This document shows positions 5,114 through 33,746 of a DNA stretch of 64,000 bases, piece by piece. Made by a program: the position numbers and the translations under genes. Each line of letters opens with the position of its first letter. Positions within the stretch are counted from its first letter, which is position 1. The DNA lies in NCBI GenBank assembly GCA_963733095.1, contig CAVTBV010000007.1, positions 96,001 to 160,000 of the forward strand. The letters run 5' to 3'. A model generated the notes under the pieces. The model saw nothing but the letters and a program-made list of their open reading frames with translations. It did no database searches and was not told the origin of the DNA. This DNA is from Candidatus Bathyarchaeota archaeon. GTDB taxonomy: Archaea; Thermoproteota; Bathyarchaeia; Bathyarchaeales; Bathycorpusculaceae.

Positions 5114-5252
5114 CCACTCTATTTAGTGCTATAAACACCGCCAAATTTTTTGTAGTTAGGCGTTTTGCCCCAAATAGCTTTTGCCGCTTCAGTAAGTTCT
5201 GCTGGGTAGTTTCCAAAAACTTGTGCAATTGGACTAATTACTCTCTCAACAA

Positions 5253-5400: not shown

Positions 5401-5596
5401 AACGCTATCTCCAATCCAAGAAGGAATTAAATGTGATTTTTCGAGCTGAACTATCTCTATCGTTTTCTCATTTCGGTTGCAAATTAGCCATGAGACTCAG
5501 TCCGACTGAGGCTCTATTAAAGACTTTTCTTGAATCTTGAATTCCTCTTTGAAAATTGTCTCTTTAGATAGGTTGTTTTTTGAATAGATCACGGTT

Positions 5597-7169: not shown

Positions 7170-7419
7170 CACTAAGCGTAAACCTACCCAATTATCAACG
7201 AGAACAACTTTAAATTTGAAATATTTTGTTTCTAGCATTTAGGATACGTTTTTTTCAAATATTTTTTTCATTAAAATTCAGAATTGTTATAATTACGAAG
7301 ACACATTGAACTTTTTCCACATATCATGCTTTTACTTAAGTTCTAAATAAGTCACTGAAAATGATTTTATCTTCACGTAAGTGCGGCCAAGGAATCATCG
7401 ATCGATATCACATCTTCAG

Positions 7420-12164: not shown

Positions 12165-13372
12165 ATGAAAATTTGCTTGGTTTCGATGGAATATCCTCCA
12201 GAGACAGGTTGGGGTGGTATTGGAACATATACCTATAATCAGGCGCATGCCCTAGCCAATTATGGGAATGAAGTGCATGTCATAGCACTTGGGATCGATT
12301 CTGGACGAGATTACCTTGACGGAAGCGTGAATGTACACAGAATAAAAACAATTAAAGTAATAAAAACTAAAAATCCTCACTTCTTTGGAGATTGCGTGGC
12401 TCACAGTCGTAAAGTATTTAAAAAGATAAAACAACTCAATTTAAACTTTGACGTCATAGAAATCCCTGAATGGCGAGCAGAAGGAATCGTAAGTGTTTTT
12501 CAAGATACGACTCCATTGATTACCCGTCTTCATACTCCGCTGTATTTGGTAAACCATTTTTCAGAAAAACAAAACACCTTTAAGACGCGTTTAATTGCAC
12601 TCAATGATAGTTTAGTGAATATTCTTGAAAGAAACCAAACTATGTACAGTATAGTATTACTGCCCCTACTGAGGCTCTTCGAAAAGAAGTTGCCAAGACT
12701 TGGAATATTGACCTTTCTCGCATAAGTGTAATTCCAAATGGCATTAACATTGAGAGAATTAGATCGGCCAGAATTGAAACAAATTCAATCGGATCGGAGT
12801 ACGTTATTTATATTGGAGGCTTGAAGCACGGAAAGGAGTTTGTTCTCGCCAAAGCTTTACCGGAAATATTTGCTAAATTCCCAAATCTGAAGGTGGTATT
12901 TGTGGGGATTGATATGCCTTATGGCAAGGGAACTATGAAAGAGCTGATTTTAAGAATCAATTCAAAATACACTCATAATATTATTTTTACCGGTTTTGTG
13001 ACAGAAGAAAATAAGTTTACATTAATTAGAAATTCTAAAATTGTGGTTTTGCCATCTATTTGGGAAGCTTTTGGATATACTTGTTAAGAATCAATGGCAC
13101 TAGGTAAAGCTGTAATAGCTAGTAATAATTCTGGTTTTGAAGAAATAATTGAAGACAATTCTTCTGGCTTTCTTGTTGAATCTGGAAATTATAAGGCATT
13201 GCAGAACAAAATAATTAGTTGCTTGGATTCAGCCGATCAACTTAAAATAGTGGAAAAAAATGCGGAGAAACGGGGAGAAGAATTTGACATCGTTAAGATA
13301 TCGCGAGAATCTATCAATTATTATGAAAAGATATTGAACATGTGCAAGAACCGCTATTCTAAGAATACTTGA
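12165..13372 (+). pseudogene. Glycosyltransferase family 4, frameshifted with in-frame stop
   Basis: MKICLVSMEYPP..GGIGTY and PSIWEAFG...MALGKAVIAS motifs; TAA at 13085-13087 interrupts the E-x7-E motif. Confidence 0.85.
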
Positions 13373-13613
13373 AACAAAAATTGTCAATAAAACCAGAGAA
13401 AAAGGGCTGACGAAATCCTTATATAGCTGCCTTAAAGAAAAAGAGATTTTCTTAACAAAGAGGCAAACAAAGGCAATTGAGATTGACAAAATAGCTTTGC
13501 TAAATCTTCAACTTAAATAAATAGACAAAGTCGTTTGATTAAAGTTTGCCTTATTCTATTACTTGGGTTAATAATCTATCAAAAGGCGATATCTTTTTTG
13601 TTAGAATATGAGT

Positions 13614-14288
13614 TCAGAGAATCCATCTTACATCTTCTTTGATAATTTTTGCTGGGATGCCAGCAACCAAACATGCTTTTGGAACATCTTTTGTGACAAC
13701 TGCCCCTGTGGCAACTACAACCCCCTCGCCTAGCCTAACACCTTTTAAGATTACTGCTCTACTACCAATCCAGACATGGCGACCAATGAAAACTGGTTTG
13801 GAGACAATAAAATCATCACGAATTATTCTATGAAAATCACTATCTCTTATTTCAACATCATATGAAATAAGTGAGTCGTCCCCAATAGAAATGTTATTTG
13901 CACAAATAATCTTGGAATCAGTTCCAACACTTATTCGGTCCCCAAATTCTAAAGTTGCATTTTTGTCAATAAGAATTTTGGCGCCATTCCCGACGCAAAC
14001 GGATCCGTTAACTATCATTTTGCTGTTCTTACGCATTTCGAAGGTGCTGGGATTGCGAGATGCGAAGCTGGTCTTGAAAGTTCCAAGACTAAACACACCT
14101 TTATTGATTATCCGCGCGCTTTTATCAACCGCCACTGCCGAGTTTCCATTCACTAACAAGCAGCTTAAGCCTTTGCCGTTGTCGCCTGCTCTTGTTCGAG
14201 AATAAACATACGCGCTCGTAAGAAATGTTCTTAAACCAATCCTATTAGAAATCATACCCCTCAGGTTTACTATAATCATATGATGCAT
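13614..14288 (-). CDS. Hexapeptide-repeat (LbH) O-acyltransferase
   Basis: DSDFH and VWIG...[23 protein letters not shown]...AGIPAKII motifs. Confidence 0.9.
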
Positions 14289-14386
14289 TCTTATCTTATT
14301 TCGGGTAGGTTTTTAAGTATTATCATGTAACGAAGTAGCAAATGTTGACTGATTATTTCTGATTACATTTTTGAGGGGAAGGTATT

Positions 14387-15220
14387 TTGTTGTACAAATT
14401 AATAAGAAGATTCGTTGGACCAGATCGAATGAAAATTAAACTTATCGGTCTAATCCGTTTGGCTAAAACAATGGAAATGAATCCGATGACTTTTACCCAC
14501 ATGTCTTACAATGATAAGGAAATGCTTTCACTTCTTGCCTCAGAATGTGGTTTCCCTTTGTCAAAGGACTTATTTAAGAAATATGCAGACCACGTTACTT
14601 CAATGGTCAGAATTGATAGTTATTCATTTATCACTCAAGATTATGAGGATTTTTATCACGCTTTGTTATTTTATGAAAAAGAAACGCTTGACTTTTCTTT
14701 GAAGAATTTGGCTGGCGGAGGAGTTTTTGTTGATGTAGGTGCCAATTTAGGTGGTTTTGCAGTAAGGTGTGGTAAAAAGGCAAGGTTATATGCCTTTGAA
14801 CCCGACCCAAGAAACTATGAATTACTAAATAGGAACATAAAACTAAATAACCTGACAAACTACAAAATTTTTAACAAAGTTGTTTCCAACAAAAAAGGAA
14901 AGGTAAACTTTTATAAATCAGCATTTCATGGCAGGAATAGTGTACTGAAAATTAACGAGGATGTGATCTCGGCTGAGTCAATTACCTTGGATTCCATTCT
15001 TGAAGCAGAAAGAACGATTGACATAATTAAGATAGATGTGGAGGGCGCCGAACTTTCTGTTTTAGAAGGTTCACAACAATCGCTCAGAAAAACGAAGTTT
15101 GTTATTGTTGAAACTTCAGATCCAATTGTTGAAAAGCTTTTATCCCCATTTATGTTTAATAGTGGATTTGAGTTTTTGAAAAAAAGTAATAATAACACCA
15201 TTTTTCTAAGAAAACAATGA
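14387..15220 (+). CDS. FkbM family methyltransferase
   Basis: FVDVGANLG, AFEPDP and IKIDVEGAE motifs. Confidence 0.92.
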   Translation: MLYKLIRRFVGPDRMKIKLIGLIRLAKTMEMNPMTFTHMSYNDKEMLSLLASECGFPLSKDLFKKYADHVTSMVRIDSYSFITQDYEDFYHALLFYEKETLDFSLKNLAGGGVFVDVGANLGGFAVRCGKKARLYAFEPDPRNYELLNRNIKLNNLTNYKIFNKVVSNKKGKVNFYKSAFHGRNSVLKINEDVISAESITLDSILEAERTIDIIKIDVEGAELSVLEGSQQSLRKTKFVIVETSDPIVEKLLSPFMFNSGFEFLKKSNNNTIFLRKQ

Positions 15221-15577
15221 ATTGGGATAATAGTTTGCTAAGTTTTACAATATTTTCATAGTTCTAAGATTCGTATAAATTTCTATTAGCCTAACCAGCG
15301 ATGCAACTTAGTAGTTTACCAAATTCTCCAAAAGTTTGGATTAGAATTTGTTGCTTCGACAATTAAAAGCGACAAGTTCGTAGAAAATAGAATTAGCTTG
15401 GTCCACAATAAATGCCTTTCGATGCCGCCAGCGGGACTTTGAAAAATTTGAGAACCTATTTGGAAGAACTTTTAGATATCTGACTACTCACAGATTATAA
15501 AGGGGCAATCAACCCAGCTTTTTTGTCGTCAACTAACTAAGCTTGAATATACTCTTATGCATACAGAAACATGGAAG

Positions 15578-16864
15578 TTATGGAGACTGGCAATATTGTT
15601 GCCAGAGCTCACCTCGTGCATTAAGAATTAGTACGTTATTCATCCAGTTTTGGTAATCAAGCAAACCTTGATTGTAAGAAGCCAAGTTATGCCCTAAATA
15701 GTCAGTTCCTATTGTATCAATGTCCCAAGTCCAGTATTGTGACCCAATTCCATTCTGAGCAAATATTTGCAAAGCGTCACTTGTGAATTGAAGATACGCA
15801 GGTTCCAGAGATGCATCATAATTATTCCACTGCTCACTGCCCCACTCCATAACGATAACGGGGAATCTTGCTGACATAGGTAAAATATCATTTTGAGTTA
15901 AATACTGCAGATATTCTGTTTTTGCCTGAACATATTTTCCCGCAATGTAGTCGTTTGCCCAATTCCAATTGCCTACTTGATAGGCCATGTATGCACCTTC
16001 GGCGGCATAAACAACATTGTTTTGTGGCAAAGGGTTGTTATACCAATCTACTAATGAGTTCCCCCAAGCCATCCCGTAAACGGCAACTAAAAGTTTCGGG
16101 TTTACTGCGTGAATTGCATCAACAGCTTGTGACGCGGCACTGCGCCAGATGCCAAAGAGGGTTGAATCAGCCATTTGATTTGAGCATGGTTCATTCAAGA
16201 TATTAAACATGCTCACAGTTGGATTGTTGATATAACGATTTGCGTAAAATTGCATCAAACCAATCCAACTCACATTAGGATAGTTACCATACCATTGCGC
16301 GCTTTGAGAAGATGGAGTCAATATCGTATTGAGAGGTGCATTAGGATTCTGCATTATTTTAAGCGCATCTTGATCTGCGACACCAACCATGTTCGGGTCA
16401 CCGTAATGAAAATCAAGAATAACATAGACATTGTGGGCTGCGGACCAGTTTACCACTTGGTCAATGATAGCAAAGTATGTTGGGTTGTACTGATACCAGG
16501 TAAGTGTTAGGCGTATGCTGTTACCTCCAGAGGCTTTCAAATAGGCAATTAGGTTTTCGTTCCAATTGCCGTTGGTGTAGGCGTTTAGTTGGCTCCAACC
16601 CCAATTCGTAGTTCCAATCGCAGCGCCTTTGAATATAAATTGCGATCCACTTGCGGTTTGAATTTGATTGCGATTCGTATGAAGCCATCCAAGTCCGAGT
16701 TCTCCTATGCTGCCCTGAATCGAAATTGTTTTTTGCGCGGTCATTTCAGTGGTGGCTGTGGTTGTGTTTGGTATAACTGTAACTATTATTGCTAAGAGAA
16801 GAATTAGAGCAGTATACTTTGGGGTCAAGCCATTCATCAATGTATATAGTTTATTAATACTCAA
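15578..16864 (-). CDS. Secreted glycoside hydrolase family 5 (cellulase family)
   Basis: N-terminal hydrophobic signal; NSIRL, VILDFH, LNEP (acid/base), VMEWG (nucleophile) and YWTW motifs. Confidence 0.88.
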   Translation of the reverse strand: MSINKLYTLMNGLTPKYTALILLLAIIVTVIPNTTTATTEMTAQKTISIQGSIGELGLGWLHTNRNQIQTASGSQFIFKGAAIGTTNWGWSQLNAYTNGNWNENLIAYLKASGGNSIRLTLTWYQYNPTYFAIIDQVVNWSAAHNVYVILDFHYGDPNMVGVADQDALKIMQNPNAPLNTILTPSSQSAQWYGNYPNVSWIGLMQFYANRYINNPTVSMFNILNEPCSNQMADSTLFGIWRSAASQAVDAIHAVNPKLLVAVYGMAWGNSLVDWYNNPLPQNNVVYAAEGAYMAYQVGNWNWANDYIAGKYVQAKTEYLQYLTQNDILPMSARFPVIVMEWGSEQWNNYDASLEPAYLQFTSDALQIFAQNGIGSQYWTWDIDTIGTDYLGHNLASYNQGLLDYQNWMNNVLILNARGELWQQYCQSP

Positions 16865-17257
16865 TAAATACTTTACTTGTTTGGACTACTTAGGCATTGC
16901 CTAAAAAAACAAGAATCCACATGGAACATCAGTGATTAGTGGTGATTACTTTTAACGGTAGGCTTTACAAAGGAGGACAAAGAGAATTTCCCGAACTATA
17001 GAAAGACTTGCATTAAAAAATTGAAAAGAATAATGTTGTTTGCAATACTCGTTTGTTACTCTGCCAATAAAAAATAAGAAAACTATTCGATGACTTTCAA
17101 GATGCGCCAACCGCAGATCTGGTATGTCTTAACAATAAAGTATGCATTGATAACGCAGTATTCGATAAGAAAAGACAACGAAACGTCATCAGAGCAAACG
17201 GAGTATTATTATAACAATAAAGTGCAAATAATCAAATCGCTTCATCAAAAAAAATAG

Positions 17258-17947
17258 TTGCAGGCAAATAACGTGACCAGTAACCAAACCACCAACGACC
17301 AAATCAAGCAACTCATACTTGATACTGTTAAGAAGCAGAAGCCCGAAACTTTAGAACAACTTATCTCCTTAATTCAAGAACACATCGCGATACTGCCAGA
17401 AAGAATAAATGACCTGCTTATTGAACTAGAAAATGAAGATCTCCTGCATTTCATCAACCCTGAACTGCCAACACCTACCTCAGCCAAAGCTTACATGTTC
17501 TCGCCAAAAGTCCTTTGGTACTGGATTACAATTATCTTTTCCTTCGCAACGATTTTAACCGTTTTTTCAATTCCAAATTCTGATTATCCATTAGTTTACT
17601 TGCGCTACGTATTGGGCTTTGTCTTCGTGCTTTTTCTGCCAGGTTACACTTTCACAAAGCTTCTCTTTTCAACAAGACTTCCTAAAATCGCCGTTTTTTC
17701 AACAAAAGGGCGAATTCAAGCAGATAGCCACAACTTCGAAACAATAGAACTCTTTTCGTTAAGCGTAGGTTTGAGTTTGGCGCTGTTACCTCTGTTAGGT
17801 TTAATTCTTAACTTTACTCCCTGGGGCGTACGACTTGCACCAATTACCTTCAGTCTACTTGCATTAACAATAGTTTTTGCAACATCCGCCGTCCTACGTG
17901 AATATCAGACAAGACTGAGGGTATCAAAATTATTGGCTAATGATTAA
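17258..17947 (+). CDS. DUF1616 family membrane protein
   Basis: LFLPGY, E...LSVGLSLA and LILNFTPWGVR motifs. Confidence 0.85.
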   Translation: MQANNVTSNQTTNDQIKQLILDTVKKQKPETLEQLISLIQEHIAILPERINDLLIELENEDLLHFINPELPTPTSAKAYMFSPKVLWYWITIIFSFATILTVFSIPNSDYPLVYLRYVLGFVFVLFLPGYTFTKLLFSTRLPKIAVFSTKGRIQADSHNFETIELFSLSVGLSLALLPLLGLILNFTPWGVRLAPITFSLLALTIVFATSAVLREYQTRLRVSKLLAND

Positions 17948-18646: not shown

Positions 18647-19468
18647 CTATAACGTTTTGTTTTTAACCCAATTATGGAAATTTTGTACTGATTCTTTTGG
18701 TAAATCATCTCTGGCTCTCACTGGTAGCTGCAATCTTTCGCTAATCTTGATAGATAGAGCTTCATAGTTGAGTGGGTACAGCTGTTCTTTGAAGGTCCAA
18801 GAAAAACCCTTTCGCTGATTGACAAGTTGCTCGTATGGTTTTAGCCAGCGAGTGGCAAAAACAGGGGTTATTCCTAGGAAATTGCAGATTTCTAACTTTT
18901 TCTCTACTTCGCTTTTGTCTAAGACAGATAGGGTGTTTTTGACTTCAACGCCTATTGTCAATTTGCCTGAACAGTGGCGGGCAATTATGTCAAGGGTGTT
19001 TTCTGTTTTTGTCCATTTTTTATTTTGATATTCTTTTGTATGTTCTCCTTTTATTTTGAAGCCTTGAATCTTTAATTCCGATTGGACTAGTTGTTCAAGA
19101 TGTTCTCCGTAGAGCGTACACATTTTATGGTTGGAGTATTTATCGATTAGTTTGCAGGTTGATTTTATATGAGTATTTAGTAGATGGTTGGAGTCAGATT
19201 TATCGAGTTTTGAGTTATAGTAGAAACAAACCGTTTGCGTTTGGGTTCGAGCTTTTCTTCTTCGCAGTTTGCCTTCCTCCTCAAGCTGAGTTAGTGCTTG
19301 ATAGACTACATCGTCGGAAAGGTTGTCTTCATATATCGTTTGGATCTGTGTAAGATAGTACGGTTTTCTTTTTGCTCGTCCGATTTTGTCTTCGAAAAGC
19401 GGCATCACACAGAGCTTGGCTGTCTGAGTTTTAGAGTCACTGTTCTGCAACAAATTCACCGCTTGCAT
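18647..19468 (-). CDS. PD-(D/E)XK restriction-endonuclease-fold protein with N-terminal winged-helix-like region
   Basis: GEHLEQLV...QGF, LDIIA and GVEVKN (E...D...ExK) motifs; N-terminal YYL.QIQ..YE...VYQAL.QL...GKL. Confidence 0.75.
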   Translation of the reverse strand: MQAVNLLQNSDSKTQTAKLCVMPLFEDKIGRAKRKPYYLTQIQTIYEDNLSDDVVYQALTQLEEEGKLRRRKARTQTQTVCFYYNSKLDKSDSNHLLNTHIKSTCKLIDKYSNHKMCTLYGEHLEQLVQSELKIQGFKIKGEHTKEYQNKKWTKTENTLDIIARHCSGKLTIGVEVKNTLSVLDKSEVEKKLEICNFLGITPVFATRWLKPYEQLVNQRKGFSWTFKEQLYPLNYEALSIKISERLQLPVRARDDLPKESVQNFHNWVKNKTL

Positions 19469-19519
19469 TTTTCTGCTAGTTGCATGCTCGTTTCTCCATG
19501 TTCCCTATATAAATAATTT

Positions 19520-21469
19520 CTAATCAATCAAACCCCTACCAAATTTTAGCTGAGGTTGACGGCTTAGTTTTTCCCGGTTTATCCAGTAAAGATAGTTGCC
19601 ATCCGAATGCAAAGTTTTTCCGAGTAGTTCAGGGGTTACTGATTTTACTTTTATGAACGGTTGTTCGACGAATTCTTTGAGGTAGCCGATGAGGGATTGT
19701 TTGTCCTCAGCGTTTAGTTGATTGAAGTATTGGTTACAGTAGCTTTTTGATTTGGCCATTTGGAAATCAAAGTTGCGTTCTTTTAGGAAGTTGTTGATTT
19801 TTTTATCTATAGCGGTTTCTTCTTTTTTGTAGTCTACTCTTTTCATGCCAGCTCTTTCAAAGAATGGGTTGTATTTGGCCATGACTGCTAAGACCTCAAC
19901 TACTTTAGCTTCAGCTGTGGGTAGGGTATGCTTTACCAAGTATTCTCCTAGTCCAATTCCCCGAAACTTTGGATGGATAATAACTCGGCTTATTCGAGCC
20001 ACTTCATCATTGATTAGTTTTGCTTTATGCAAATCTCCAGGTGTAAACTTGTAGCGTTCCCCAAAAACCATGTTCCGAGGTTTAAGGTTCAAGTATGAGT
20101 TGGAATAGATGATAATTCCGATTAAGTTGTTGCCGCAGACAAGTTTGTAGCAGTTTCGCATTCTTAATTGCATGTTCTCTTTTTCGTTTGTGCTTCGGTA
20201 ATGGAAGCATTTTAACTTCTCGTAGTCTTCAAGGTCGCCTTCCTCAACAAGTATCGAGTCGAGCAGGCTGCACGGTTTAGCCGCAAATCTGTTTTTCTCT
20301 ACTGTAACATCTCCTTCAAAGCCCTTCCTAACCGTTATGTCAGGCTGAAAATCACCAAGTAAATCATCATGCGTGGTCGCAACAACCACAGTTTTCCCCA
20401 GCTTTCGAGCAAGCTTCTGCAAAGAGTAAGCGATTACCTTAGCCATAACACGGTCTAAACAACCGCAGAACTCATCAATCAACCAAACCTTCTTTTCTGT
20501 GCAATTAACGAGCTTAGCAAGCCGATAGCGGAATTTTTGACCATCGCTTAACTCCTTGAACTTACGCAGAAACATAAAAGCGTCATTCAACCCACATAAA
20601 CTCAGAATTTCAACAGCTTCCTTAACATCTTTACCAATACCTTCAACCAACGTCTCCTCAGGATCCACCGGAAAATCGCAAAGATCGATTGACTCTTCTC
20701 CAAAAAAGTTTTTAAAAGCCTTCAAAAGCAAAGATTTACCTCCTCCAGAATCACCCGTAACATAAATCAGATCGCCCCGTCTAAAATCAAGGCTAAAATT
20801 ATCAAATACCACAAACCGCTTAGTCTCGTCGATACCTAAGCCGAATGCTTCACAAACAGCCAAAGTCCGTTCTGAAATAGCTGCTTTAGTTGAGAATTCA
20901 ACGTTGCATTTTAACGTTAGAAGCTCGTCTGAATGCTCACCAGCAGGATTATGTATGTTGTTTTCAACTTTAGACTCGAAGCCTCCTGCAAGCCGTTTAA
21001 TATCGTCATCGCAGACGCTTGCTGGCTCACGAAGTCTGATCAAATTGTCAATACGCAAATCAGTCTCGTTAAGCAGAGACTTTAGTAGGCCGCGCTCGCC
21101 TTCGCTAATTATTCGGTAGTATTCTTCAGCATCTAGCAGTAAATCGTGTTCTCCGCGTAGCTTATTCATAACCTGTCTAATCAATCGTCTATCCACTTCG
21201 GAAACAGGCAACCGGACAACACTTACTTGTCGAATTCCAAGAGCTTTAGCAGCTTTGAGTCTGTGCTCGCCATCTGCAACCAGCAAATCCTTGTTAGTAA
21301 TGATGGGTACGACAAAGCCGAAGTGTTCAATGCTTTTCTTTAAAGCAGAGAAACGCTTGGGGGACAGCTTGTTGGGGTTGGCGCCATCTGTTTTTAACAA
21401 ATCAACAGAGACTAGTTCGGTTGGGGGGACAAATACTTCAATTTCTATAATAGGGGTCGTAGTGTTCAT
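19520..21469 (-). CDS. ParB/Srx-like domain fused to ABC ATPase and GNAT acetyltransferase (COG2401-like)
   Basis: ParB: NPN...SIEHFGFVVPII...DGEHRLKAA. ABC: GDSGGGKS, LSDGQ, WLIDEF, TTHDD. GNAT: HYR...RISRVIIHPKFRGIGLG...FFERAG. Confidence 0.9.
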   Translation of the reverse strand: MNTTTPIIEIEVFVPPTELVSVDLLKTDGANPNKLSPKRFSALKKSIEHFGFVVPIITNKDLLVADGEHRLKAAKALGIRQVSVVRLPVSEVDRRLIRQVMNKLRGEHDLLLDAEEYYRIISEGERGLLKSLLNETDLRIDNLIRLREPASVCDDDIKRLAGGFESKVENNIHNPAGEHSDELLTLKCNVEFSTKAAISERTLAVCEAFGLGIDETKRFVVFDNFSLDFRRGDLIYVTGDSGGGKSLLLKAFKNFFGEESIDLCDFPVDPEETLVEGIGKDVKEAVEILSLCGLNDAFMFLRKFKELSDGQKFRYRLAKLVNCTEKKVWLIDEFCGCLDRVMAKVIAYSLQKLARKLGKTVVVATTHDDLLGDFQPDITVRKGFEGDVTVEKNRFAAKPCSLLDSILVEEGDLEDYEKLKCFHYRSTNEKENMQLRMRNCYKLVCGNNLIGIIIYSNSYLNLKPRNMVFGERYKFTPGDLHKAKLINDEVARISRVIIHPKFRGIGLGEYLVKHTLPTAEAKVVEVLAVMAKYNPFFERAGMKRVDYKKEETAIDKKINNFLKERNFDFQMAKSKSYCNQYFNQLNAEDKQSLIGYLKEFVEQPFIKVKSVTPELLGKTLHSDGNYLYWINREKLSRQPQLKFGRGLID

Positions 21470-21968
21470 TATCTGTATCCTCACTATATTCGGTTTTTTT
21501 GTCAACTGAGGAATCGGTGAAAGGTTGTTTGTTTGCAGCTGCCCTTCTTTCCGTCATGTTTAGAAAAAAATCAGCTAATCTATCGTAGGCGATTTCCGGG
21601 TTTTCATGAGCTTTTTTCAAAGCAATCTTCAAATTGCTAAAGAATTCAAGGTAATGCAGGTCAAAATACAGCTGGTCTACTCTATTGTTAGGATCGCCGA
21701 TTAAAGAGAGCAATGTGAACTTGAGTGTTCCTGTTGCATACCTGAAGAGGATCTCACAACCCTTGTTGATTATATCCTTGTTCGCCTGCAATATCTCAGG
21801 AGTAAGCTTAGGACCAAACTCCTCCTGCAGTTTCTCTATCCTTAGAAAGAGAGCTTTCTCAGCCTCACTGAAGGTCGAGTTGTCAAATCGACCTATATAA
21901 TCTCTTGGCTCGTCGACAAGTTTAGAAGACAAAGCGTCAATTCTCTTAGTTAAACGAGGCATGTTCAT
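21438..21968 (-). CDS. Hypothetical helical protein, translationally coupled in the cluster
   Basis: 176 aa ORF; ATGA overlap with upstream HTH gene and overlap with the downstream fusion gene. Confidence 0.7.
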   Translation of the reverse strand: MNMPRLTKRIDALSSKLVDEPRDYIGRFDNSTFSEAEKALFLRIEKLQEEFGPKLTPEILQANKDIINKGCEILFRYATGTLKFTLLSLIGDPNNRVDQLYFDLHYLEFFSNLKIALKKAHENPEIAYDRLADFFLNMTERRAAANKQPFTDSSVDKKTEYSEDTDNEHYDPYYRN

Positions 21969-22357
21969 GGTACAAACACTCCATGTTTGGCTTTTTCCTC
22001 TAAAGCTTGTAGTCGATTGATAAGCTCGGGGAGAACAGCGGTTTGAAACAGCATCGTGTTTGCCTTGAGCATGATGTTAAGGGCGCCAAGCTGAGCAAAT
22101 TCATTTTGGCTTGTTAGTAGGCGGACGCTGGCTTGCCGATAGATTTGTTCGTACCGGTTGACCACCTTCATCATAACGTCTTCACAATTTAGGACACTTT
22201 GAAGGGCTGGTTGCCACCGTGCTCTGGTTTCAAAGTCCAAGTAGATAGTGCGTTCGCTGCAACCCGCTTTTTGGCTAAGTTCCGAGACGATTTCGGCTTG
22301 GGAGAAGCCTAAGCCCTCCAGCCTGAGCAGTTCTAAGCGTCTGGTTATTGTTTGCAT
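21965..22357 (-). CDS. HTH protein resembling phage terminase small subunit N-terminus
   Basis: RRLELLRL...GFSQAEIV.ELS....CSERTIYLD HTH pattern followed by helical region. Confidence 0.6.
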   Translation of the reverse strand: MQTITRRLELLRLEGLGFSQAEIVSELSQKAGCSERTIYLDFETRARWQPALQSVLNCEDVMMKVVNRYEQIYRQASVRLLTSQNEFAQLGALNIMLKANTMLFQTAVLPELINRLQALEEKAKHGVFVP

Positions 22358-22890: not shown

Positions 22891-24093
22891 TTATGGGATT
22901 TCAGGGTTGCTGATGCATCTTGACGCCCACGGCATTAGTGTGTATGAAAAGAGTGGATTGCCTAAGTGGGTGCAGTTGTTTCCGCTTTGGGCATGCGGGT
23001 TGTCTTTGTAGAAACCGCTTGGTTCCATTACGGTATTTGCAGTTCCCGTTCCTGTCATTGGAGGATAAGTTGGAACTCCTGGGTGTTGTAAGCCCATTAC
23101 GTGTCCCAGCTCATGAGCTAGGTGATTGATGTTTATAGCTCCAAGATAGGCGCCCGGATTGTTTGGGTCAGGTACTCTGAGCTGTGCATCGCATGTTACG
23201 ATTTGGGCGTTGGCTGTACCTGAGCCAAAGGTTGCTCCTCCTCCCCAGTTAGCGTAGAAATACTGATTCATGCTATCAGCTACAAACACTTCTATAGCGT
23301 TAGATTGAGTTACTTCGTTTCTTAAGTTATCAATTTCAGTCGCAGTATCTAAAACTTTGTAGTTAGCCTTGTTAACATAGACTGGAGGGAGAACGTTGAA
23401 GAAAATACAGCATTTTCTCCACATACACTTAGCGGCTTGCATCAATGTGTCAAACGACCAGCCAGTAGGGCTCGCATCGGTTGGTCCTGATCTGATGAAA
23501 ACAGGTTGAATCGGAAGAGTCTTAAAAAAAGCAAAGGCTATGATGACTGTTCCCACGATGGATACATTTTGGACAACTATTTGAGTTACCCATGGGAACT
23601 CTTGCGCCTTCAAATCTAAACTTAAGGTAATCGGTACTCTCATTTCTTTGGTAGGTTCCCTCATTGGAAAACTCAATTTTTCCCCAAATTTTCCTTGGAT
23701 CTTGCCCATTATTGTATCGACGAAAGGAACAAAATAGTCCAAGTCTTTTCCTTCAGATTTTCTGTAGCCTTTTGATTTATCGATTAGCGGATAATGCAGA
23801 TTCATTTGGAAGGATACTTCAAATGTTCCGTCCGGAGAATATTTTGCTACCGATGGGTTTCTTAAGTTAAGTGAAATTTGTCCCGAATCTCCCTCTTTGG
23901 CCTCTACAGTTGACGCAATAAGATTTGCTTCATCGAGGGTAAGTTTAGGCGTTTCTTTGTCGTTTGAAATAGAAAATAGCAGTTCACCGTTAATTTGAGA
24001 TTTTTGTTTTCCCTTGTTTGTGATTACGAATGCGGATGCATTTACGAGTTTTGCTATCAGATGATTTTGTTTTGTTGTTGACATGTTTTTCAC
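22891..24093 (-). CDS. Zinc metalloprotease, metzincin type
   Basis: HELGHVMGLQH (HExxHxxGxxH) plus downstream Met-turn TVM; no evident signal peptide. Confidence 0.85.
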   Translation of the reverse strand: MKNMSTTKQNHLIAKLVNASAFVITNKGKQKSQINGELLFSISNDKETPKLTLDEANLIASTVEAKEGDSGQISLNLRNPSVAKYSPDGTFEVSFQMNLHYPLIDKSKGYRKSEGKDLDYFVPFVDTIMGKIQGKFGEKLSFPMREPTKEMRVPITLSLDLKAQEFPWVTQIVVQNVSIVGTVIIAFAFFKTLPIQPVFIRSGPTDASPTGWSFDTLMQAAKCMWRKCCIFFNVLPPVYVNKANYKVLDTATEIDNLRNEVTQSNAIEVFVADSMNQYFYANWGGGATFGSGTANAQIVTCDAQLRVPDPNNPGAYLGAININHLAHELGHVMGLQHPGVPTYPPMTGTGTANTVMEPSGFYKDNPHAQSGNNCTHLGNPLFSYTLMPWASRCISNPEIP

Positions 24094-24309: not shown

Positions 24310-25182
24310 ATGCCAAATTCAGTACAGGTGACAATCGATATTTTTAGCGGTCGACCCAATCCAGTACTAGAGTTTAAAGACCAAGAAGCCAAAACCATTT
24401 TAGACAAACTGCAACCAGGAAAAAAAATAATCGCCCAAAAACCACTCCCCTCCGAACCTATACTAGGATACAGAGGAATGATAATAAATCAAATCGGAGA
24501 ACAGACCAAAGATTTGCCACAGACTTTTCGAGTCGCCAACGGAGAGCTTTTCGGCACCAATCTAGCCCATAAAGCAAAGGACGAAACTTTTGAAGACTTC
24601 ATATGCGGCACAAACCAAGCGAAAAAAATGGAAGAACCTCTATGCCGAATTATGAAGGAGCAAATCAAGAATTTCCACGAAATAAGAGAAAAATGGGTCC
24701 ATGAGAAAATAGTCTGGCCTCCCCACACGAATCCTTGCAAATGCGCGCCCCTATATGAGCCAACATGGTGGAATGTCCCTGCTATTCAGCCATACAACAA
24801 CTGCTACAACTATGGCACTAATTATCGTTCAAACACTTTTGCACAGCCAGGCCGTTCAGGAGGAGCCATGTACACATCTTTAACTTGTGCCTCAGTAAAA
24901 CCAGCAGCATTAAAAGACGACCTAATCGATAGTCCTACCCAAGAAAATGCTTGCCCCAAAGAAGGACATTTGGTTGCACTAGTAATATGGCCCAATTATG
25001 ATTTTCATTGGTATCGCAAGGGTCAAAACGGGTATTGGTCTCATAAGCCTGGAGGTACTGCAGTAACCAACGTCGATAACAGCGGACATCTGATTCTTGA
25101 TCCAAGGAATGCTAACAGAGGGGGATACACCGATTTCTGCGGATTCATGGTTGTCAAAGATGGACACATCAAAATCAGCTAA
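24310..25182 (+). CDS. Putative papain-fold Cys enzyme with N-terminal FSGRPNP/LGYRG domain
   Basis: NNCYNY...FAQPG...DFHWYR...WSHKPG gives a candidate Cys/His active site. Confidence 0.6.
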   Translation: MPNSVQVTIDIFSGRPNPVLEFKDQEAKTILDKLQPGKKIIAQKPLPSEPILGYRGMIINQIGEQTKDLPQTFRVANGELFGTNLAHKAKDETFEDFICGTNQAKKMEEPLCRIMKEQIKNFHEIREKWVHEKIVWPPHTNPCKCAPLYEPTWWNVPAIQPYNNCYNYGTNYRSNTFAQPGRSGGAMYTSLTCASVKPAALKDDLIDSPTQENACPKEGHLVALVIWPNYDFHWYRKGQNGYWSHKPGGTAVTNVDNSGHLILDPRNANRGGYTDFCGFMVVKDGHIKIS

Positions 25183-25946: not shown

Positions 25947-26348
25947 TTATTCCATTTGGTCAATTGGAATTGCGACTTTGCACTTCTTAAGCAAATCTTT
26001 GTCCTGCGTTACTAATTTCATATTTTGCCTTTCAGCAATGTATGCATACGAAGCATCATAGAACGTGAGGTTCCGTTCTATAGCAATCGCCAGAACATCA
26101 GCGATAGAATCTATCGTCATCTTTTGCAATGGAGCGAGGGCATCAGAAAAAATCGTTGCAACCCTGCTGGGATCCTTGAGTTTTTCTTGTTTATTTTCCC
26201 GCCATAGCACATTACCAACTTCAAATTCAATAAGTGAACTCACAGCGCACTCCTCGACACTGAAGGGAATACCTGAGATAAGCATCGGATAGAGCGCTGA
26301 GGTATCTATGAGGTACTTACATCTCTTGTCTTGTCGCTGTGACATCAT
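25947..26348 (-). CDS. vapC: VapC/PIN toxin
   Basis: LIDTSA...EVGN...LTFYDASY...LVTQD motifs. Confidence 0.92.
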   Translation of the reverse strand: MMSQRQDKRCKYLIDTSALYPMLISGIPFSVEECAVSSLIEFEVGNVLWRENKQEKLKDPSRVATIFSDALAPLQKMTIDSIADVLAIAIERNLTFYDASYAYIAERQNMKLVTQDKDLLKKCKVAIPIDQME

Positions 26349-26654: not shown

Positions 26655-27095
26655 TTAAACGTCGAACGGATAATCCTTGATATGTGTCACTTTAAAGTGT
26701 TCCTTGGCTTTTTCAAACAATTTGTTGTCTGCTGTAATCAGTTCTGCGCCTATTTTTTCGCAAAGAAAAAGATAAGCTGCATCATAAATCGCAATATCAA
26801 TCTTGCAGGCAATTGCTAAGCTCTGGGAAACATCGGTCCAATCTAATTCATAAAGCCTTAGTTGAGTATCCTGCAAGAATTTGAGTGCCTCTTGAGCATC
26901 AGTCTGCTGGATTCTTCTTTGTTTAACCGCTATCCACAATGCGTTTGCTGTTTCTTGTGTAATAAATGACGGCGCGAACAGCTGAACTTCGCCGCTGAGG
27001 AAATTGTGTTTTAGTTTATCTGCGTTTTCCTGATAAATTTCATCGGGCAAAACCCATTTCAAGACTACGCTTGCATCTATGATACAGTTAAGCAT
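26655..27095 (-). CDS. vapC: VapC/PIN toxin
   Basis: IIDASVVLKW...ETANAL...IYDAAY...LITAD motifs. Confidence 0.92.
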   Translation of the reverse strand: MLNCIIDASVVLKWVLPDEIYQENADKLKHNFLSGEVQLFAPSFITQETANALWIAVKQRRIQQTDAQEALKFLQDTQLRLYELDWTDVSQSLAIACKIDIAIYDAAYLFLCEKIGAELITADNKLFEKAKEHFKVTHIKDYPFDV

Positions 27096-27773: not shown

Positions 27774-28199
27774 CTATAAGGTCGGCAGTTTAACTATGCC
27801 GTCTATGTTGCTGAAGTGCTCATCGAACGTGTATATTTCGTCGATATCGTTTTGTCGCATTCTATCAACGGCTAACGCATCGTTTGGTTCAAGCTTTAAG
27901 TCGTTACCAATTTCAGCCGCGGCAAAATACGCATCTTTAGTTACATCAAGGATTCTTACATTATCTAACATAAAGAGCCCCAAAATCAACGACGTTAGCT
28001 GATCTTGAGGCATGCCATTTTTAAGAATGTTAACAATTTCCGAAACATGTACAACTGTTGTAGTGACTTGTTCTTCGCCTGATGAAACCCTTCTGATTAT
28101 TTCTTTCGCTTGATCTTTCATAGCCTCTTCTTTTTCGGTTAAAGTCTTCTTCGGTCTATAATAGGCATAGACAAAAACGTTTGCATCCAAGAACCTCAT
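27774..28199 (-). CDS. vapC: VapC/PIN toxin
   Basis: FLDANVF...SEIVN...NDAL...IYTFDEHF motifs. Confidence 0.92.
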   Translation of the reverse strand: MRFLDANVFVYAYYRPKKTLTEKEEAMKDQAKEIIRRVSSGEEQVTTTVVHVSEIVNILKNGMPQDQLTSLILGLFMLDNVRILDVTKDAYFAAAEIGNDLKLEPNDALAVDRMRQNDIDEIYTFDEHFSNIDGIVKLPTL

Positions 28200-29339: not shown

Positions 29340-29747
29340 TTAGCTTATCCATAGGGTTTCGGGTAAGTCTTTGAAGTGCTCGTCTCCGGTTAGAACTTTG
29401 CATTGATTTATTCTAGCTGTTGCAAGGACTATAGCGTCGAATAGGCTGGGTGGGTTTTGTTTGGATCTTTTTGATTTTTCCACAAGTTCAAGGTGGCATT
29501 TTGCTGCTTCCAGAGCTAATGCTGAATCGATTTGGGTTATGTTTGAAGCCGCGTTGATCATGTCAAGCCATTCTGCGACTGTACTTTCATCGTTGCCTTC
29601 TCTTAGAAATTTTCGGGCGCTCTCAGCTAACACAATACTTGGAGTATAGACTTCTTCTGCGTTTTCAAGAATTTCCACCACTTTCTTGCCTTTTTCGCTT
29701 CCAAGCAGCAGCTCAACCCATGCATACGTGTCAATTACGATCTTCAC
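29340..29747 (-). CDS. vapC: VapC/PIN toxin
   Basis: VIDTYAWVE...LAE...SLFDAIVLATA...LTGDEHF motifs. Confidence 0.93.
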   Translation of the reverse strand: MKIVIDTYAWVELLLGSEKGKKVVEILENAEEVYTPSIVLAESARKFLREGNDESTVAEWLDMINAASNITQIDSALALEAAKCHLELVEKSKRSKQNPPSLFDAIVLATARINQCKVLTGDEHFKDLPETLWIS

Positions 29748-30298: not shown

Positions 30299-33190
30299 TT
30301 ATGGTCGTTTTCTGAGCATCAATAGAGCTAGCATAATGCCAACTACAATTATAGTGATAATTGTGGCAATTATTCCGGGCAGTATATATTGGTCAGACGT
30401 TGAAGCAGGTGCGGATGTTGGTCCAGCTGTTGATGCTGGTGCTTGCATTACTGTAAATCTGTCTTCTGTTGAAGATGGCCAGTAGCCATTGGTGCCTTGG
30501 AAGTTTGCGATAACAGTGAAGTCACCTGGAATGTCAGGTGTCCATGTTAAGCTGTAGGTGCCTGTTTCATCAGTTGTTGCCGTTCCAATAGTCCTATAGT
30601 TACCGTTAGAGTCCAAAACGTTTATCGTGACTGGAACGCCGGTGAAGTTGTTAGGCAGGGGTTTTTGTTGGTAGACGTAACCCATCCAGTCCTTCATGCT
30701 TGCGTCAGAAGCAACTGGAACTCCCTTGGGGAAGTCAGCTGCCTGCTGGTCTTGGTTTGTGCCTGCTGAAATATCCATTACTGTGCCTTTGATCACGATT
30801 GGTGTTCCCTCTGGCACACCCACGTTTGGTGCTGTGACGGTAGTTGTACTCGGTCCTCTGCCTACGCTGTAGATTTGGTTGTCGTATCCATTGTAAAATG
30901 TTGCAAAGCCATCTGCGATAGCGAAACTGATAAGATTAAATTCTCCAACGTATGATGAAAGAGTCCAAATTTCTTGTCCCGTGGATGCGTTAACAGCCCG
31001 TACTAGTGCACCTTTGTAAATTGGATCAGTGATAGTGTGTTCAGTGCTTGCCAAGTATATTACTCCATTACCGATAGCGTTTATGAAAGTTGGATATTCA
31101 CCATAAAAGACGTTCAAGCCCGCGTAAGTTGTGTTGCCTTCCCCGCCATTGCCAAAGGTAAACACCAAGTCTCCAGTTGTTAAATTCCAGCAGTACAGTA
31201 TTCCTGCGAATGCACTTGCGTAGAGGTTGCCGTAAGCAGCTTGATAGTCGGCGTCTGGAGTGCCGGGTTCGCCATAATAGTCAAAGGGTGCGCGAGGTTC
31301 AGTTGGACCCCATATTCTTTCGCCCGTGGCCAGGCTGTATCCTACAACTTGCATAGTTTCTCCATATGATTCAGTGAATACACCGTGTCCATTGTCGGCT
31401 GTTGGATCAATTACGCCTGATACGACAGTGAGGTTTCCTGCGGGAGGGTTATACGTCTTGGTCCAAAGTACCTGACCTATTGAGCCTTTAGAAGAGTCAA
31501 GATTGATGGTAAAGTAGGTGTATGGATCTTGCGGTAAACCATTTTTATTTGCTGCAAAACCATTAGGCAATGTACCGATTCTGCAAAGCAACAGATTGTT
31601 GGTGAAAGCTGCAACAATCGTAGGTGCTGAGGTCTGAGTATTAAGTGATGATATTGAAACGTTCCAGTCGTAAGTAGTTGTTCCGTGGCCAGAAAGAGTT
31701 CCGCCTATAGTAGAGGAGTTAAGTGGGACGTTTGCATCGACTATAAGCGCAGAGCCATAAGGTACCTGAGTGGTGCGTCCATTTGGCAGATAACCATTTG
31801 TGCCTGTAACTGGAATAGGGACATTTGTGACTAGGACTCCGTTGCTTGCATTTATGATGGACGGCGACAGGCTTCCGCCTCCAGTGTATGGGTTAATGTC
31901 GTATTGCCAAAGCTTGCTTGAGTTCCACTGAGCCAAATACCATTGTGGATTCGAATTTGTGCCTGCGTTTGCAAAGACATACCTCAATTGTTCACCGTTT
32001 GGACCTGCAGCTGGAGCACCATTTGGAACATTAGTCACATTAAACATTGGATCTCCAGTGTAAGCATTGAAAGCTTGGGCAAAGTTTGATGTAAACAGTA
32101 TTGGCGGAAAAACTCCGTGTTGATCTGGATCCCACAGGTTGAATATGTAGCCGAAAGAGAGCGCAGGGACATCGGTTCGAGACCAGATGAGTTCCCCTGT
32201 GCGGAGGTCAACGCAGTCTGTTGGTCCAGTATAGGGTCCGTTAAACCATATTGGTTCGGTGTAGTATAGGTATCCGTTGATTATTATGGGGTTTGTGTAT
32301 CTGTTTTGGTAGGATGAGCCTTCGAAGTAGGCAGCTCCTGGAACTGCTCCATTAGGGTTTGAGCCACCAGCAACAAATGGGTTTCCTCCAACGACTCCAC
32401 CCATTTCCATTGGTTTTGTCCACATTATGTGGGACGTTAAAGGTCCAACAGCATCTCCAGGGTATCGCTGGATTTGGTTGCCGTTGCTGAGACCGCTGAT
32501 AAATCCTGATCCTGTTGCTGACGCTACTGCTGATCCTGTTCCAAGCCAGTTTGATGAAATCGTCCACCAATCAGTGTTCTCGCCATATATTGGATGTGTC
32601 CAGTATTGGGTAGGTAGAGGATAGCTACTTATGGCTTCAGGTATTGGGTCTTGCTCTACAGTGAGAGTCGTTGATACAGAGCTAGGCAAATATGTGTCGT
32701 TAATTAGGGAGGATTTTTCGTAGTGTTCATATTGAGCATAGGCTTGTCCTGGAAAGCTGAAGTTGAAAGTGTATGTGCCGACTTGGTCGGGAGTGATTTT
32801 TGTAAATTGTGATGATGTGGTATCAGAGATGACATCAAATGTCTGTGTTGTTGATGTGCCGTCCGGTGCTGTTATAGTGAGTTTGTAGTTGTGGAACCTA
32901 TAGTTGTTTGCAAGCAATGCTGCACTAGCGGTAGAACCATTCGTTCCAATATCCGCGGTAGTTCCCCCTGCTGCGCCGAAAACACAATCAAGCCACATGT
33001 AGATGTGTGCTGTTTGTCCGACACCAATAGGGGAAGGTGCCGCAACAATGAAGGCGTACGTTGGAATTTGCCAGCCTGGATCATGAGCACTAACATTTGG
33101 CACTAACATAGTTGATGTTCCTATAGAAACTGTCAAGATTACTGCAATCAAAATAGCCATAGATTTACTTTTCAAAGTTTTCATTTGCAT
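30299..33190 (-). CDS. Large surface-anchored PQQ-like beta-propeller protein, paralog 1
   Basis: Signal peptide, Ig-like N-domain, repeated TG...W blades, Ig-like C-domain, S/T/P linker, TM helix + LMLRKRP. Confidence 0.85.
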   Translation of the reverse strand: MQMKTLKSKSMAILIAVILTVSIGTSTMLVPNVSAHDPGWQIPTYAFIVAAPSPIGVGQTAHIYMWLDCVFGAAGGTTADIGTNGSTASAALLANNYRFHNYKLTITAPDGTSTTQTFDVISDTTSSQFTKITPDQVGTYTFNFSFPGQAYAQYEHYEKSSLINDTYLPSSVSTTLTVEQDPIPEAISSYPLPTQYWTHPIYGENTDWWTISSNWLGTGSAVASATGSGFISGLSNGNQIQRYPGDAVGPLTSHIMWTKPMEMGGVVGGNPFVAGGSNPNGAVPGAAYFEGSSYQNRYTNPIIINGYLYYTEPIWFNGPYTGPTDCVDLRTGELIWSRTDVPALSFGYIFNLWDPDQHGVFPPILFTSNFAQAFNAYTGDPMFNVTNVPNGAPAAGPNGEQLRYVFANAGTNSNPQWYLAQWNSSKLWQYDINPYTGGGSLSPSIINASNGVLVTNVPIPVTGTNGYLPNGRTTQVPYGSALIVDANVPLNSSTIGGTLSGHGTTTYDWNVSISSLNTQTSAPTIVAAFTNNLLLCRIGTLPNGFAANKNGLPQDPYTYFTINLDSSKGSIGQVLWTKTYNPPAGNLTVVSGVIDPTADNGHGVFTESYGETMQVVGYSLATGERIWGPTEPRAPFDYYGEPGTPDADYQAAYGNLYASAFAGILYCWNLTTGDLVFTFGNGGEGNTTYAGLNVFYGEYPTFINAIGNGVIYLASTEHTITDPIYKGALVRAVNASTGQEIWTLSSYVGEFNLISFAIADGFATFYNGYDNQIYSVGRGPSTTTVTAPNVGVPEGTPIVIKGTVMDISAGTNQDQQAADFPKGVPVASDASMKDWMGYVYQQKPLPNNFTGVPVTINVLDSNGNYRTIGTATTDETGTYSLTWTPDIPGDFTVIANFQGTNGYWPSSTEDRFTVMQAPASTAGPTSAPASTSDQYILPGIIATIITIIVVGIMLALLMLRKRP

Positions 33191-33324
33191 TTTTCTTCCT
33201 TCAATTTTAGAATTGAGTGAAGTAACCACTTCACACAAATTAGCTACTGCAAAGGTTTCACTATAAATAACTTATCCAACTCTCTCCATCCAAAAAAGAG
33301 AAAATATTAACTTCATTATACATA

Positions 33325-33622: not shown

Positions 33623-33718
33623 TGTCGTCAGTGGGCACTGGATACTCCAAAAATTTATAAAGAAATCCCGTAAATAAGGGGTTTTGGACAAGGACTTCTT
33701 TTCGATTTTGTTCTTGTC
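33623..33718 (+). promoter_or_regulatory. Conserved promoter and 5' UTR hairpin of beta-propeller gene
   Basis: TTGT-N3-CAGTGGGCAC box, TTATAAAG TATA and GACAAGGAC/GTTCTTGTC stem; equivalents at 39399-39496 and 53642-53733 (minus). Confidence 0.7.
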
Positions 33719-33746
33719 ACATAAAAATAAAAGGAGAAAAAGTCAA

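Follow-up and report, generated by a model that had tools for sequence, protein, structure and literature searches.

How does a gene set whose relatives lie beside the terminase genes of tailed viruses come to stand alone on an archaeal chromosome, and what might it do there? The question is raised by a 64,000-nucleotide stretch of contig CAVTBV010000007.1 (positions 96,001–160,000, forward strand; assembly GCA_963733095.1, Candidatus Bathyarchaeota archaeon), here called the window. Between window positions 18647 and 22357 lies a cassette of four genes, all on the minus strand, which encode a helix-turn-helix (HTH) protein, a protein of 176 amino acids (aa), a fusion of ParB, ABC ATPase and GNAT acyltransferase domains, and a putative nuclease. 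An earlier sequence-only reading took these genes for a virus-derived module in which acyl modification of DNA is paired with restriction by the nuclease. We lean, with slightly better than even confidence, towards an account in which the locus is a compact derivative, lacking a terminase, of the packaging-linked ParB, ABC ATPase and GNAT module that tailed viruses carry. The conserved core of the cassette would be the HTH protein, the small and fast-evolving 176-aa protein and the single-chain ParB/Srx-ABC-GNAT enzyme, and the nuclease would be an intact, separately mobile gene that joined them in one sub-lineage only. All coordinates refer to the window unless a contig is named; our own numbers for loci (L), genomes (G), contigs (C) and protein clusters (c) are used where things need to be told apart.

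Organization of the cassette

The HTH protein (130 aa, cluster c22) is encoded at 22357–21965 (minus strand), and its gene overlaps that of the 176-aa protein (cluster c23; 21968–21438, minus) by 4 nt in an ATGA-type arrangement. The triple fusion (21505–19520, minus) is 661 aa long when counted from a TTG start and 649 aa, the form given in databases, when counted from an ATG 12 codons later; its overlap with the 176-aa gene is 68 nt with the first start and 32 nt with the second. A gap of 51 nt separates the fusion stop from the start of the fourth gene (19468–18647, minus), which encodes a 273-aa winged-helix and PD-(D/E)XK nuclease (cluster c41). The open reading frame (ORF) listing agrees with the sequence-only reading on the orientation, overlaps and spacing of these genes, and the domain calls made there for all four proteins hold.

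The window belongs to contig C7 of a 2.84-Mb assembly in 16 contigs, and close homologues of proteins from this genome carry Bathyarchaeia labels. That no methyltransferase, terminase, capsid or integrase gene is nearby, as had been claimed, fits our scans. Contig C7 gives no match to Phage_integrase (PF00589) and none to N6_N4 DNA methylase (PF01555; other DNA-methylase families were not scanned), the single Terminase_6N match in the whole genome is on contig C8, and a scan of the 17 larger ORFs from 10206 to 42194 found no capsid, portal or terminase family. A transporter permease is likewise missing among the neighbour genes of the cassette, both in the ORF listing and in the scan of these 17 ORFs.

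Domains and conservation of the fusion protein

Three domains can be delimited in the fusion: (i) an N-terminal ParB/Srx domain at residues about 26–135 (21101–21430, minus), (ii) a soluble ABC ATPase domain at residues about 200–395 (20321–20908, minus) and (iii) a GNAT acyltransferase domain with a helical insert at residues 398–661 (19523–20314, minus), the GNAT core lying at about residues 430–570. The ParB domain is matched weakly by PF02195 (E 0.0044) and far better, over residues about 26–156, by PHROG 498, a DNA methyltransferase family with a ParB domain (E 9.5e-20), by PHROG 620 (E 6.8e-16) and by the PADLOC model MTase_II PDLC03308 (E 8.7e-13). Its A-D-G-E-H-R motif is invariant among 40 aligned homologues, with A77, D78, E80 and R82 fixed. 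A Pfam scan finds no methyltransferase domain in the fusion.

The ABC domain is recognized by PF00005 (E 6.7e-9) and by many NCBIfam ABC models, all of them far under their cut-offs. The motifs expected of an ABC ATPase are fixed in the same 40 sequences: the Walker A segment T250–K257, signature residues L319, S320, G322 and Q323, Walker B residues D344, E345 and F346, and H379. The GNAT domain matches Acetyltransf_10 at the family cut-off (E 5.3e-5), and R515, G518 and L519 of its acyl-CoA motif, R-G-x-G-L, are invariant in the alignment. PHROG 11143 covers the ABC and GNAT domains together (residues 202–526, E 3.6e-30), and the fusion is also matched by PHROG 293 (E 3.9e-29) and PHROG 886 (E 3.2e-21).

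Relatives in viruses, proviruses and phages

Relatives of the ParB-ABC-GNAT protein were fetched at 79 loci in genomes and 32 in IMG/VR; ORFs were called with a simple script of our own and then clustered, and an unfused ABC-GNAT gene was called at 69 and 31 loci, respectively (100 in all). The large terminase subunit gene, TerL, lies at most three genes from an unfused ABC-GNAT gene at 45 of the 69 genome loci and 22 of the 31 IMG/VR loci (67 of 100), and genes of head or tail clusters are present in 24 of the 31 viral loci. Cluster representatives were assigned to families of the terminase large subunit, the tail tube, tail completion and tail proteins. These relatives without a ParB domain share 37–47% identity with residues about 200–620 of the fusion at most loci, and 50% at L128.

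A set of loci closer to the window in gene content comes from viruses and from proviruses of the same genus. The IMG/VR contig L125 has the order ParB-ABC-GNAT (666 aa), a c22-like protein of 168 aa, TerL, portal and capsid, and proviruses L174–L177 have split ParB, ABC and GNAT genes followed by a c22-like gene and then TerL; the portal that follows TerL in the proviruses is named by Pfam in L175 only. Cultured phages carry the module as well. A tblastn search gave 84 phage records at 35–38% identity over ∼55% of the query, with E values down to 1e-54. In Gordonia phage NHagos (genes 1–4) and Pseudomonas phage phiK7B1 (genes 004–013), ParB genes, an ABC gene and a gene for a GNAT part stand just upstream of the terminase and portal genes, and in Salmonella phage SSU5 such genes stand at the genome end. 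Annotations of the phage genes read 'ABC-type ATPase fused to a predicted acyltransferase domain / MK0520' or 'ABC transporter'.

By sequence and architecture, the fusion is a member of this viral ParB/ABC/GNAT family (COG2401/MK0520-type), and its viral origin, which the sequence-only reading had supposed, is borne out by relatives beside the terminase in archaeal viral contigs, proviruses and cultured phages. A place beside the terminase, a feature of the family, is seen in the relatives and not at the window locus. The genome that holds the window contains further copies of its own: an ABC-GNAT paralogue on contig C8, which comes after TerL and a winged-helix gene, a partial copy at an end of contig C2, and a degraded ParB-ABC copy on contig C16.

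The C8 paralogue (locus L015) is part of an island of ∼6 kb, at about 1976–8148 of that contig, which consists of genes for a TrmB-like HTH protein, a 147-aa protein, TerL, the winged-helix protein and ABC-GNAT. Head and tail genes are absent from it, and it is flanked by a CheB/CheR fusion on one side and a PAS histidine kinase on the other. A partial duplicate of the island, with the same CheB/CheR flank, lies at the start of contig C2 (L016). ABC-GNAT frames of 680–1009 aa are found at L039, L044 and L068 and also in genomes G038, G360 and G086, and are possibly fusions with an upstream terminase or another domain.

The two small proteins

The HTH protein is matched by HTH_11 of Pfam at a weak E value of 0.032, and a search of the Protein Atlas returned its own cluster and clusters that bear HTH_11. 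Its family is very large, with 953 homologues, the best 120 of which have at least 68% identity. The relation of interest is to proviruses of the same genus. Over 101 residues the protein is 49% identical to a protein of L177 whose gene lies directly upstream of TerL and overlaps the TerL start, and relatives in this position, where a small terminase subunit (TerS) would be expected, are also present in L174, L175, L176 and the viral contig L125. At the window locus, TerL does not follow the HTH gene. We call the HTH protein small-terminase-like solely because of its position in the relatives and its homology to them: it is homologous, by sequence, to the TerS-position protein and a candidate for a small-terminase-like DNA-recognition subunit, and we do not claim it as TerS. 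The TerS-like label of the sequence-only reading is supported by this position of the homologues. A PHROG scan of 22 members of the HTH family gave no terminase family, the TerS-position homologues of L125 and L175 have no match in Pfam, and a sequence-profile search of the PDB with the HTH family found nothing. PADLOC gave one weak partial match, to JetA2 PDLC00539 (E 0.0069, residues 20–83).

Homology to the TerS-position protein could also be read as a sign of piracy. The HTH protein and the ParB enzyme would then divert or block the packaging of related viruses, resident or incoming, as a satellite-like element or in superinfection exclusion, and the genome does hold both the island with TerL and ABC-GNAT on C8 and the degraded ParB-ABC copy on C16. 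However, no gene for replication, integration or capsid remodelling accompanies the cassette, binding of the HTH protein to a terminase is hypothetical, and the invariance of three catalytic sites in the fusion goes unexplained. We consider this account quite improbable.

The 176-aa protein has no match in Pfam, NCBIfam, PADLOC or PHROG, and the Protein Atlas returned scores of 0.77 only, with nothing informative. Its recognizable relatives were found only within the cassette, where the gene sits between the HTH gene and the fusion at seven loci (the window locus, L020, L021, L022, L023, L026 and L210). Copies at L020, L022 and L026 are 24–49% identical over aligned residues in our own alignments, and the L023 copy is 51% identical over 134 residues by BLASTP; the corresponding position at L028 shows only a weak match of 95 aa to the family.

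Two further observations concern these genes. At L022 the 176-aa gene is duplicated, with a 153-aa copy before the HTH gene and a 175-aa copy after it. On contig C6 of the window genome (about 60344–66305), a fragment shares 73% identity with residues 1–41 of the HTH protein. A weak match to an integrase and a full match to an N6_N4 methylase lie ∼5 kb away, and the whole may be another mobile element.

A stand-alone cassette under selection

Relatives of the fused gene with 62–87% identity were examined at 12 distinct loci: the window locus, L020–L028, L173 and L210. The HTH gene is upstream of the fusion in 8 of the 12. No TerL, portal or capsid family was found in L020, L022–L025, L027 and L028, where ORFs of at least 130 aa were scanned over up to 8 kb, or less at contig ends. 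Housekeeping genes surround the cassette there, such as those for pyruvate:ferredoxin oxidoreductase, cobalamin synthesis, DnaK/DnaJ, a cation efflux pump and a class II aminoacyl-tRNA synthetase. PIN toxin genes are found too, and at L024 an integrase lies 5 kb from the cassette. The sequence-only reading had allowed that homologues might always sit in complete proviruses; the close homologues lie outside them. An indirect sign that the fusion and HTH genes usually share a contig is that 20 longest-contig values are common to the lists of the best 120 homologues of each. Among 401 sampled genomes of the class, 121 contain some relative of ABC-GNAT and four the full-length fusion.

Between the window locus and L020, nonsynonymous divergence (dN) is 0.16 in the fusion gene and 0.17 in the HTH gene; synonymous divergence (dS) is saturated, and the ratio is about 0.05. 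The nuclease gene has a dN of 0.32 (ratio about 0.2) and the 176-aa gene one of 0.44. Because its presence is patchy and its dN low, we regard the cassette, on these comparisons, as a small, patchily distributed island under selection, and because no terminase lies near the locus, as a detached variant of the viral module.

Is the locus instead the remnant of a decaying provirus, with no present function? Degraded copies do occur in the genome, on C16 and at an end of contig C2, and reading frames are broken at L023 and L028. In the window, however, the frames are intact and all motifs invariant, and homologues of the fusion form >120 protein clusters at 63–87% identity, some on contigs up to 820 kb. 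Low dN against saturated dS and the recurrence of the same three-gene order at unrelated chromosomal sites also speak against decay, which we think very improbable.

The substrate of the GNAT domain

An AlphaFold2 model of residues 398–661 (predicted local distance difference test score, pLDDT, 88.6) shows a GNAT domain with a helical insert. A Foldseek search with it returned 220 matches at E ≤ 0.001, and among the matches listed almost all are GNAT acyltransferases. In a VIA search, many solved GNATs scored Z 12.0–13.2, with scores tied. The adenine-modifying protein Mom of phage Mu (8bv8) is one of them, with Z 12.8 and the longest alignment listed (170 residues at a root-mean-square deviation of 4.2), and is tied with phosphinothricin, ribosomal-protein and N-terminal acetyltransferases. 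At the level of sequence, neither Pfam nor PDB profile searches found a match between Mom and the GNAT domain, and the PDB sequence-profile search with the GNAT part recovered the acyl-CoA motif only (E 0.051). Since scores are tied across substrates, the fold does not tell which substrate the enzyme uses.

The list of structural matches is also what favours a substrate other than DNA. The closest solved folds are mostly small-molecule or protein N-acetyltransferases (phosphinothricin acetyltransferases, RimI, Ard1/NatA, Naa60), and TmcA and NAT10, which join an ATPase to a GNAT domain and acetylate RNA cytidine, are at Foldseek ranks 26 and 20. The GNAT domain might accordingly act on a packaging or chromatin protein, or on tRNA in the manner of these two enzymes, and the ParB domain and HTH protein would then only localize or regulate it. 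Tied scores favour no substrate, however, and the gene contexts point elsewhere: the module is fused to or adjoins ParB-fold, DNA-associated domains of the type found on DNA methyltransferases, and it stands beside the terminase in unrelated viruses. We regard a protein or RNA target as unlikely.

Two considerations suggest that DNA would be the target in the terminase-less derivative we favour. First, the ABC-GNAT protein is tied to ParB-fold proteins and terminase in unrelated viruses; second, the ParB domain is kin to those on phage DNA methyltransferases. Acyl-type modification of DNA has been proposed before, as a published prediction for ABC-GNAT proteins: the portion of PMC7824862 that cites Iyer et al. 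2013 gives acyl modification of a DNA base as their predicted activity. PMC13229309 describes a phage ParB-like protein that activates a DNA thymine dioxygenase on double-stranded DNA, and reports from genome mining that ParB and terminase domains are among the most frequent neighbours of those dioxygenases. The main text of a paper on Bathyarchaeia viruses (PMC10848311) mentions no acetyltransferase, ABC, ParB or GNAT protein, and a literature search gave nothing on COG2401, on a Bathyarchaeia virus terminase with an acetyltransferase, or on the ParB, ABC and terminase genes of SSU5.

A sequence of steps can be proposed for such an enzyme. The HTH protein, the ParB domain or both would target it to DNA; ATP-driven closure or dimerization of the ABC domains would clamp or distort the duplex; and the GNAT domain would then move an acyl group from acyl-CoA to a DNA base. 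On this scheme the enzyme would do with acyl groups what the ParB-methyltransferase fusions found at the same place in phages do with methyl groups. In Bathyarchaeia the cassette would have left the virus and been kept by purifying selection as a small mobile island of the chromosome.

Several observations weigh against this reading. The link to DNA is, for the members of the ABC-GNAT family, a prediction. There is no terminase at the locus, so a packaging-linked role is inapplicable here, and what the cassette does now may not be what the module does in viruses. Scores of the GNAT model are tied among protein, small-molecule and RNA acetyltransferases, and neither Mom nor TmcA and NAT10 are set apart from the rest. 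The HTH protein matches no known TerS family in Pfam, PHROGs or PDB sequences, and an hhalign comparison of the HTH, 176-aa and nuclease families with the small genes that precede TerL in the other lineage of viruses showed no relation (best probability 2.7%). Lastly, with dS saturated, the selection ratios are rough.

The nuclease and its link to the cassette

In its predicted structure, the 273-aa protein is a member of the PD-(D/E)XK superfamily, with a restriction-endonuclease-like fold and a conserved acidic/lysine site. The AlphaFold2 model has a pLDDT of 94.8. By VIA search, residues 5–106 match extended winged-helix domains (5aim, Z 10.2), and residues about 118–273 match AF1548 (1y88, Z 10.0), NucS (2vld, Z 10.0), Can2 (8bao, Z 9.4–9.8) and VC1899 (Z 9.5), followed by McrC, BstEII and Hjc at Z 8.0–8.1. 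In the E...D...ExK site, D160 and K177 are invariant across 37 homologues and E131 and E175 nearly so. The family is small (41 clusters). It was the wide VIA search that gave these matches; Foldseek returned none at E ≤ 0.001, no Pfam nuclease family matches at E up to 1, and the PDB profile search with the family gave only a weak winged-helix match (E 0.13).

Could the fusion mark the cell's own DNA with acyl groups while the nuclease cuts DNA that lacks the mark, in a restriction-modification or addiction system? Several features would fit. The active site of the nuclease is intact and conserved and its winged helix is of a DNA-binding type; the gene follows the fusion in the same orientation at five of the ten fused loci that can be read (the window locus, L020, L023, L028, where it is in two pieces, and L210); and the cassette, with its varied chromosomal sites and patchy distribution, resembles a small selfish island. 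Elsewhere, nuclease homologues neighbour large DNA methylases (807 aa at L171, 828 aa at L196, Eco57I-like at L211) or lie among defence-type genes (AIPR twice, AbiEi, PLD, and DUF499 with RmuC), as well as an integrase and housekeeping genes.

The distribution of the nuclease nevertheless argues, for the most part, against an obligate pair. It is missing downstream of the fusion at the other five readable loci (L022, L024, L025, L027 and L173); L021 and L026 were left out of this count as their sequence ends too early. The nuclease family occurs in 11 of the 401 class genomes, and of the four that bear the full-length fusion only the window genome has it, with no nuclease match in G148, G035 or G355. 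In G398, of the same genus, no ABC-GNAT match shares a contig with the closest nuclease. When metagenomes were scanned with the nuclease family, 55 loci were obtained, of which L210 has the full four-gene order, L236 and L237 have ABC-GNAT pieces nearby, and 52 have no ABC-GNAT; where upstream sequence reaches 2.1 kb or more, which is so at 18 loci, the fusion is directly upstream at one (L210). Of the 43 neighbour ORFs scanned, which come from 20 of the loci, most have no match to a family of modification enzymes. The nuclease has also evolved at about twice the rate of the fusion, and at L023 the fusion is split into three ORFs next to a whole nuclease, although an assembly error may be the cause there. 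PADLOC has no system-level match for the locus and none for the nuclease or the 176-aa protein, and its matches to the fusion are partial and confined to single domains (MTase_II on the ParB part, mad3, mad8, LmuB and AbiLi).

An obligate pair of nuclease and modification gene was found neither among the fused loci, nor in the class sample, nor among the metagenomic nuclease loci. The single restriction-modification-like system of the sequence-only reading is therefore not upheld, although the nuclease does neighbour the fusion at loci other than the window. With five of the ten fused loci lacking the nuclease and 52 of the 55 nuclease loci lacking the fusion, an acyl-based pair is a thin possibility, which we regard as improbable. 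Judged by its gene contexts, the nuclease is an independent gene of the defence-island type that joined the cassette in one sub-lineage, facultative rather than core.

A related proposal would treat the cassette as a captured viral DNA-acylating machine that now acts as a self-contained, mobile self-marking element. As a restriction arm it would use the nuclease, where the sub-lineage possesses one, or else the ParB/Srx domain itself, which is of a nuclease type; in the latter case the fusion would be a single-chain, acyl-based restriction-modification enzyme. This, too, we think is doubtful at best.

Two of the nuclease loci are of interest in themselves. At L171, on contig C110 of G398, the nuclease gene is placed between an insertion sequence with a DDE transposase and the 807-aa methylase, of the N6_N4 family, and a D5-type primase-helicase lies a few kb off; this may be a different nuclease–methylase pairing on a mobile element. 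The 828-aa methylase of L196 is similar and is convergent to the nuclease gene.

Surroundings of the cassette in the window

Of the 17 ORFs scanned between 10206 and 42194, 12 have a family match and five have none. The matched families are glycan-synthesis enzymes, a GH5 hydrolase, DUF1616, four PIN toxins and large beta-propeller surface proteins. The tRNA and Rfam scans of the window gave no match. Repeats flanking the cassette are limited to short imperfect pairs, such as one of 21 nt at 17734 and 22771 (86% alike), and no convincing attachment sites were found among them. A DNA search of 41 genomes of the genus identified no empty insertion site: the flanks are non-syntenic, and their matches are mostly to multi-copy PIN genes. 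Contigs from one DNA sequencing run were short and of low depth, showed no joints, and none ran across the whole stretch.

A glycan-related cluster at 12165–17947 abuts the cassette and comprises genes for a GT4 glycosyltransferase, a hexapeptide acyltransferase, an FkbM methyltransferase, the GH5 hydrolase and a DUF1616 membrane protein. A DUF1616 gene is also found downstream of the cassette in L020. On the other side is a divergent pair encoding proteins of 400 aa (22891–24093, minus) and 290 aa (24310–25182, plus), neither with a Pfam match; the translation of the 400-aa protein has a zinc-protease-type motif, H-E-x-x-H-x-x-G-x-x-H, near its C-terminus. Four successive genes for PIN-domain (VapC-like) proteins follow, all on the minus strand (25947–26348, 26655–27095, 27774–28199 and 29340–29747), the first two with a small ORF directly upstream, and near-copies of the PIN genes are dispersed across many genomes of the genus. 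Beyond them are three paralogues encoding proteins of 900–980 aa (30299–33238, minus; 33684–36404, plus; 39372–42194, plus) with PQQ-like beta-propeller and Ig-like (Big_3_5) domains, which are probably surface proteins.

Significance and comparison with known systems

Among gene sets beside the terminase of tailed viruses whose function is still a prediction, the ParB/ABC/GNAT module is one of the most widespread, and databases mislabel it as a transporter or a partition system. A version outside a virus, made up of one polypeptide and two small partners, offers the simplest way to probe the module: one gene with three active sites. If DNA acylation proved true, archaea and phages would have an enzymatic DNA base modification of a new class; if the nuclease read the acyl mark, acylation would for the first time be the basis of a restriction-modification pair. 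Were neither the case, the locus would still be a clear example of a viral packaging accessory retained by cells.

The tailed-phage module (SSU5, nickie, phiK7B1 and NHagos) has homologous ABC and GNAT domains and a ParB-fold partner, and its function is likewise predicted only. In the phages, ParB, ABC and GNAT are spread over two to four genes, whereas at the window locus they are one polypeptide, with no terminase, portal or capsid gene nearby, on a cellular chromosome among non-viral neighbours. The ABC-GNAT genes beside TerL in head-tail viruses of Bathyarchaeia and Nitrososphaeria belong to the same host group, and both forms occur in the window genome. The unfused viral proteins have no ParB domain, however, and by hhalign the small genes upstream of them (c2, c5, c6, c17 and c26) show no detectable relation to those of the HTH and 176-aa proteins.

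Phage DNA methyltransferases with a ParB domain have the ParB type that matches the fusion best and the same order of a ParB domain followed by a group-transfer enzyme. In the fusion, that enzyme is a predicted ATP-dependent ABC and GNAT unit with an acyl-CoA-type motif rather than a methyltransferase that uses S-adenosylmethionine. Mu Mom has the GNAT fold in common with the fusion and neither an ABC nor a ParB domain. For the nuclease, Mrr-type modification-dependent enzymes, AF1548 (1y88), which we take to belong with Mrr, and the C-terminal domain of NucS/EndoMS offer the same two-part layout and E...D...ExK site. What the window locus appears to add to these systems is the combination of a single ParB-ABC-GNAT chain, a stand-alone and cellular setting, a partner that resembles a small terminase and, in one sub-lineage, a nuclease.

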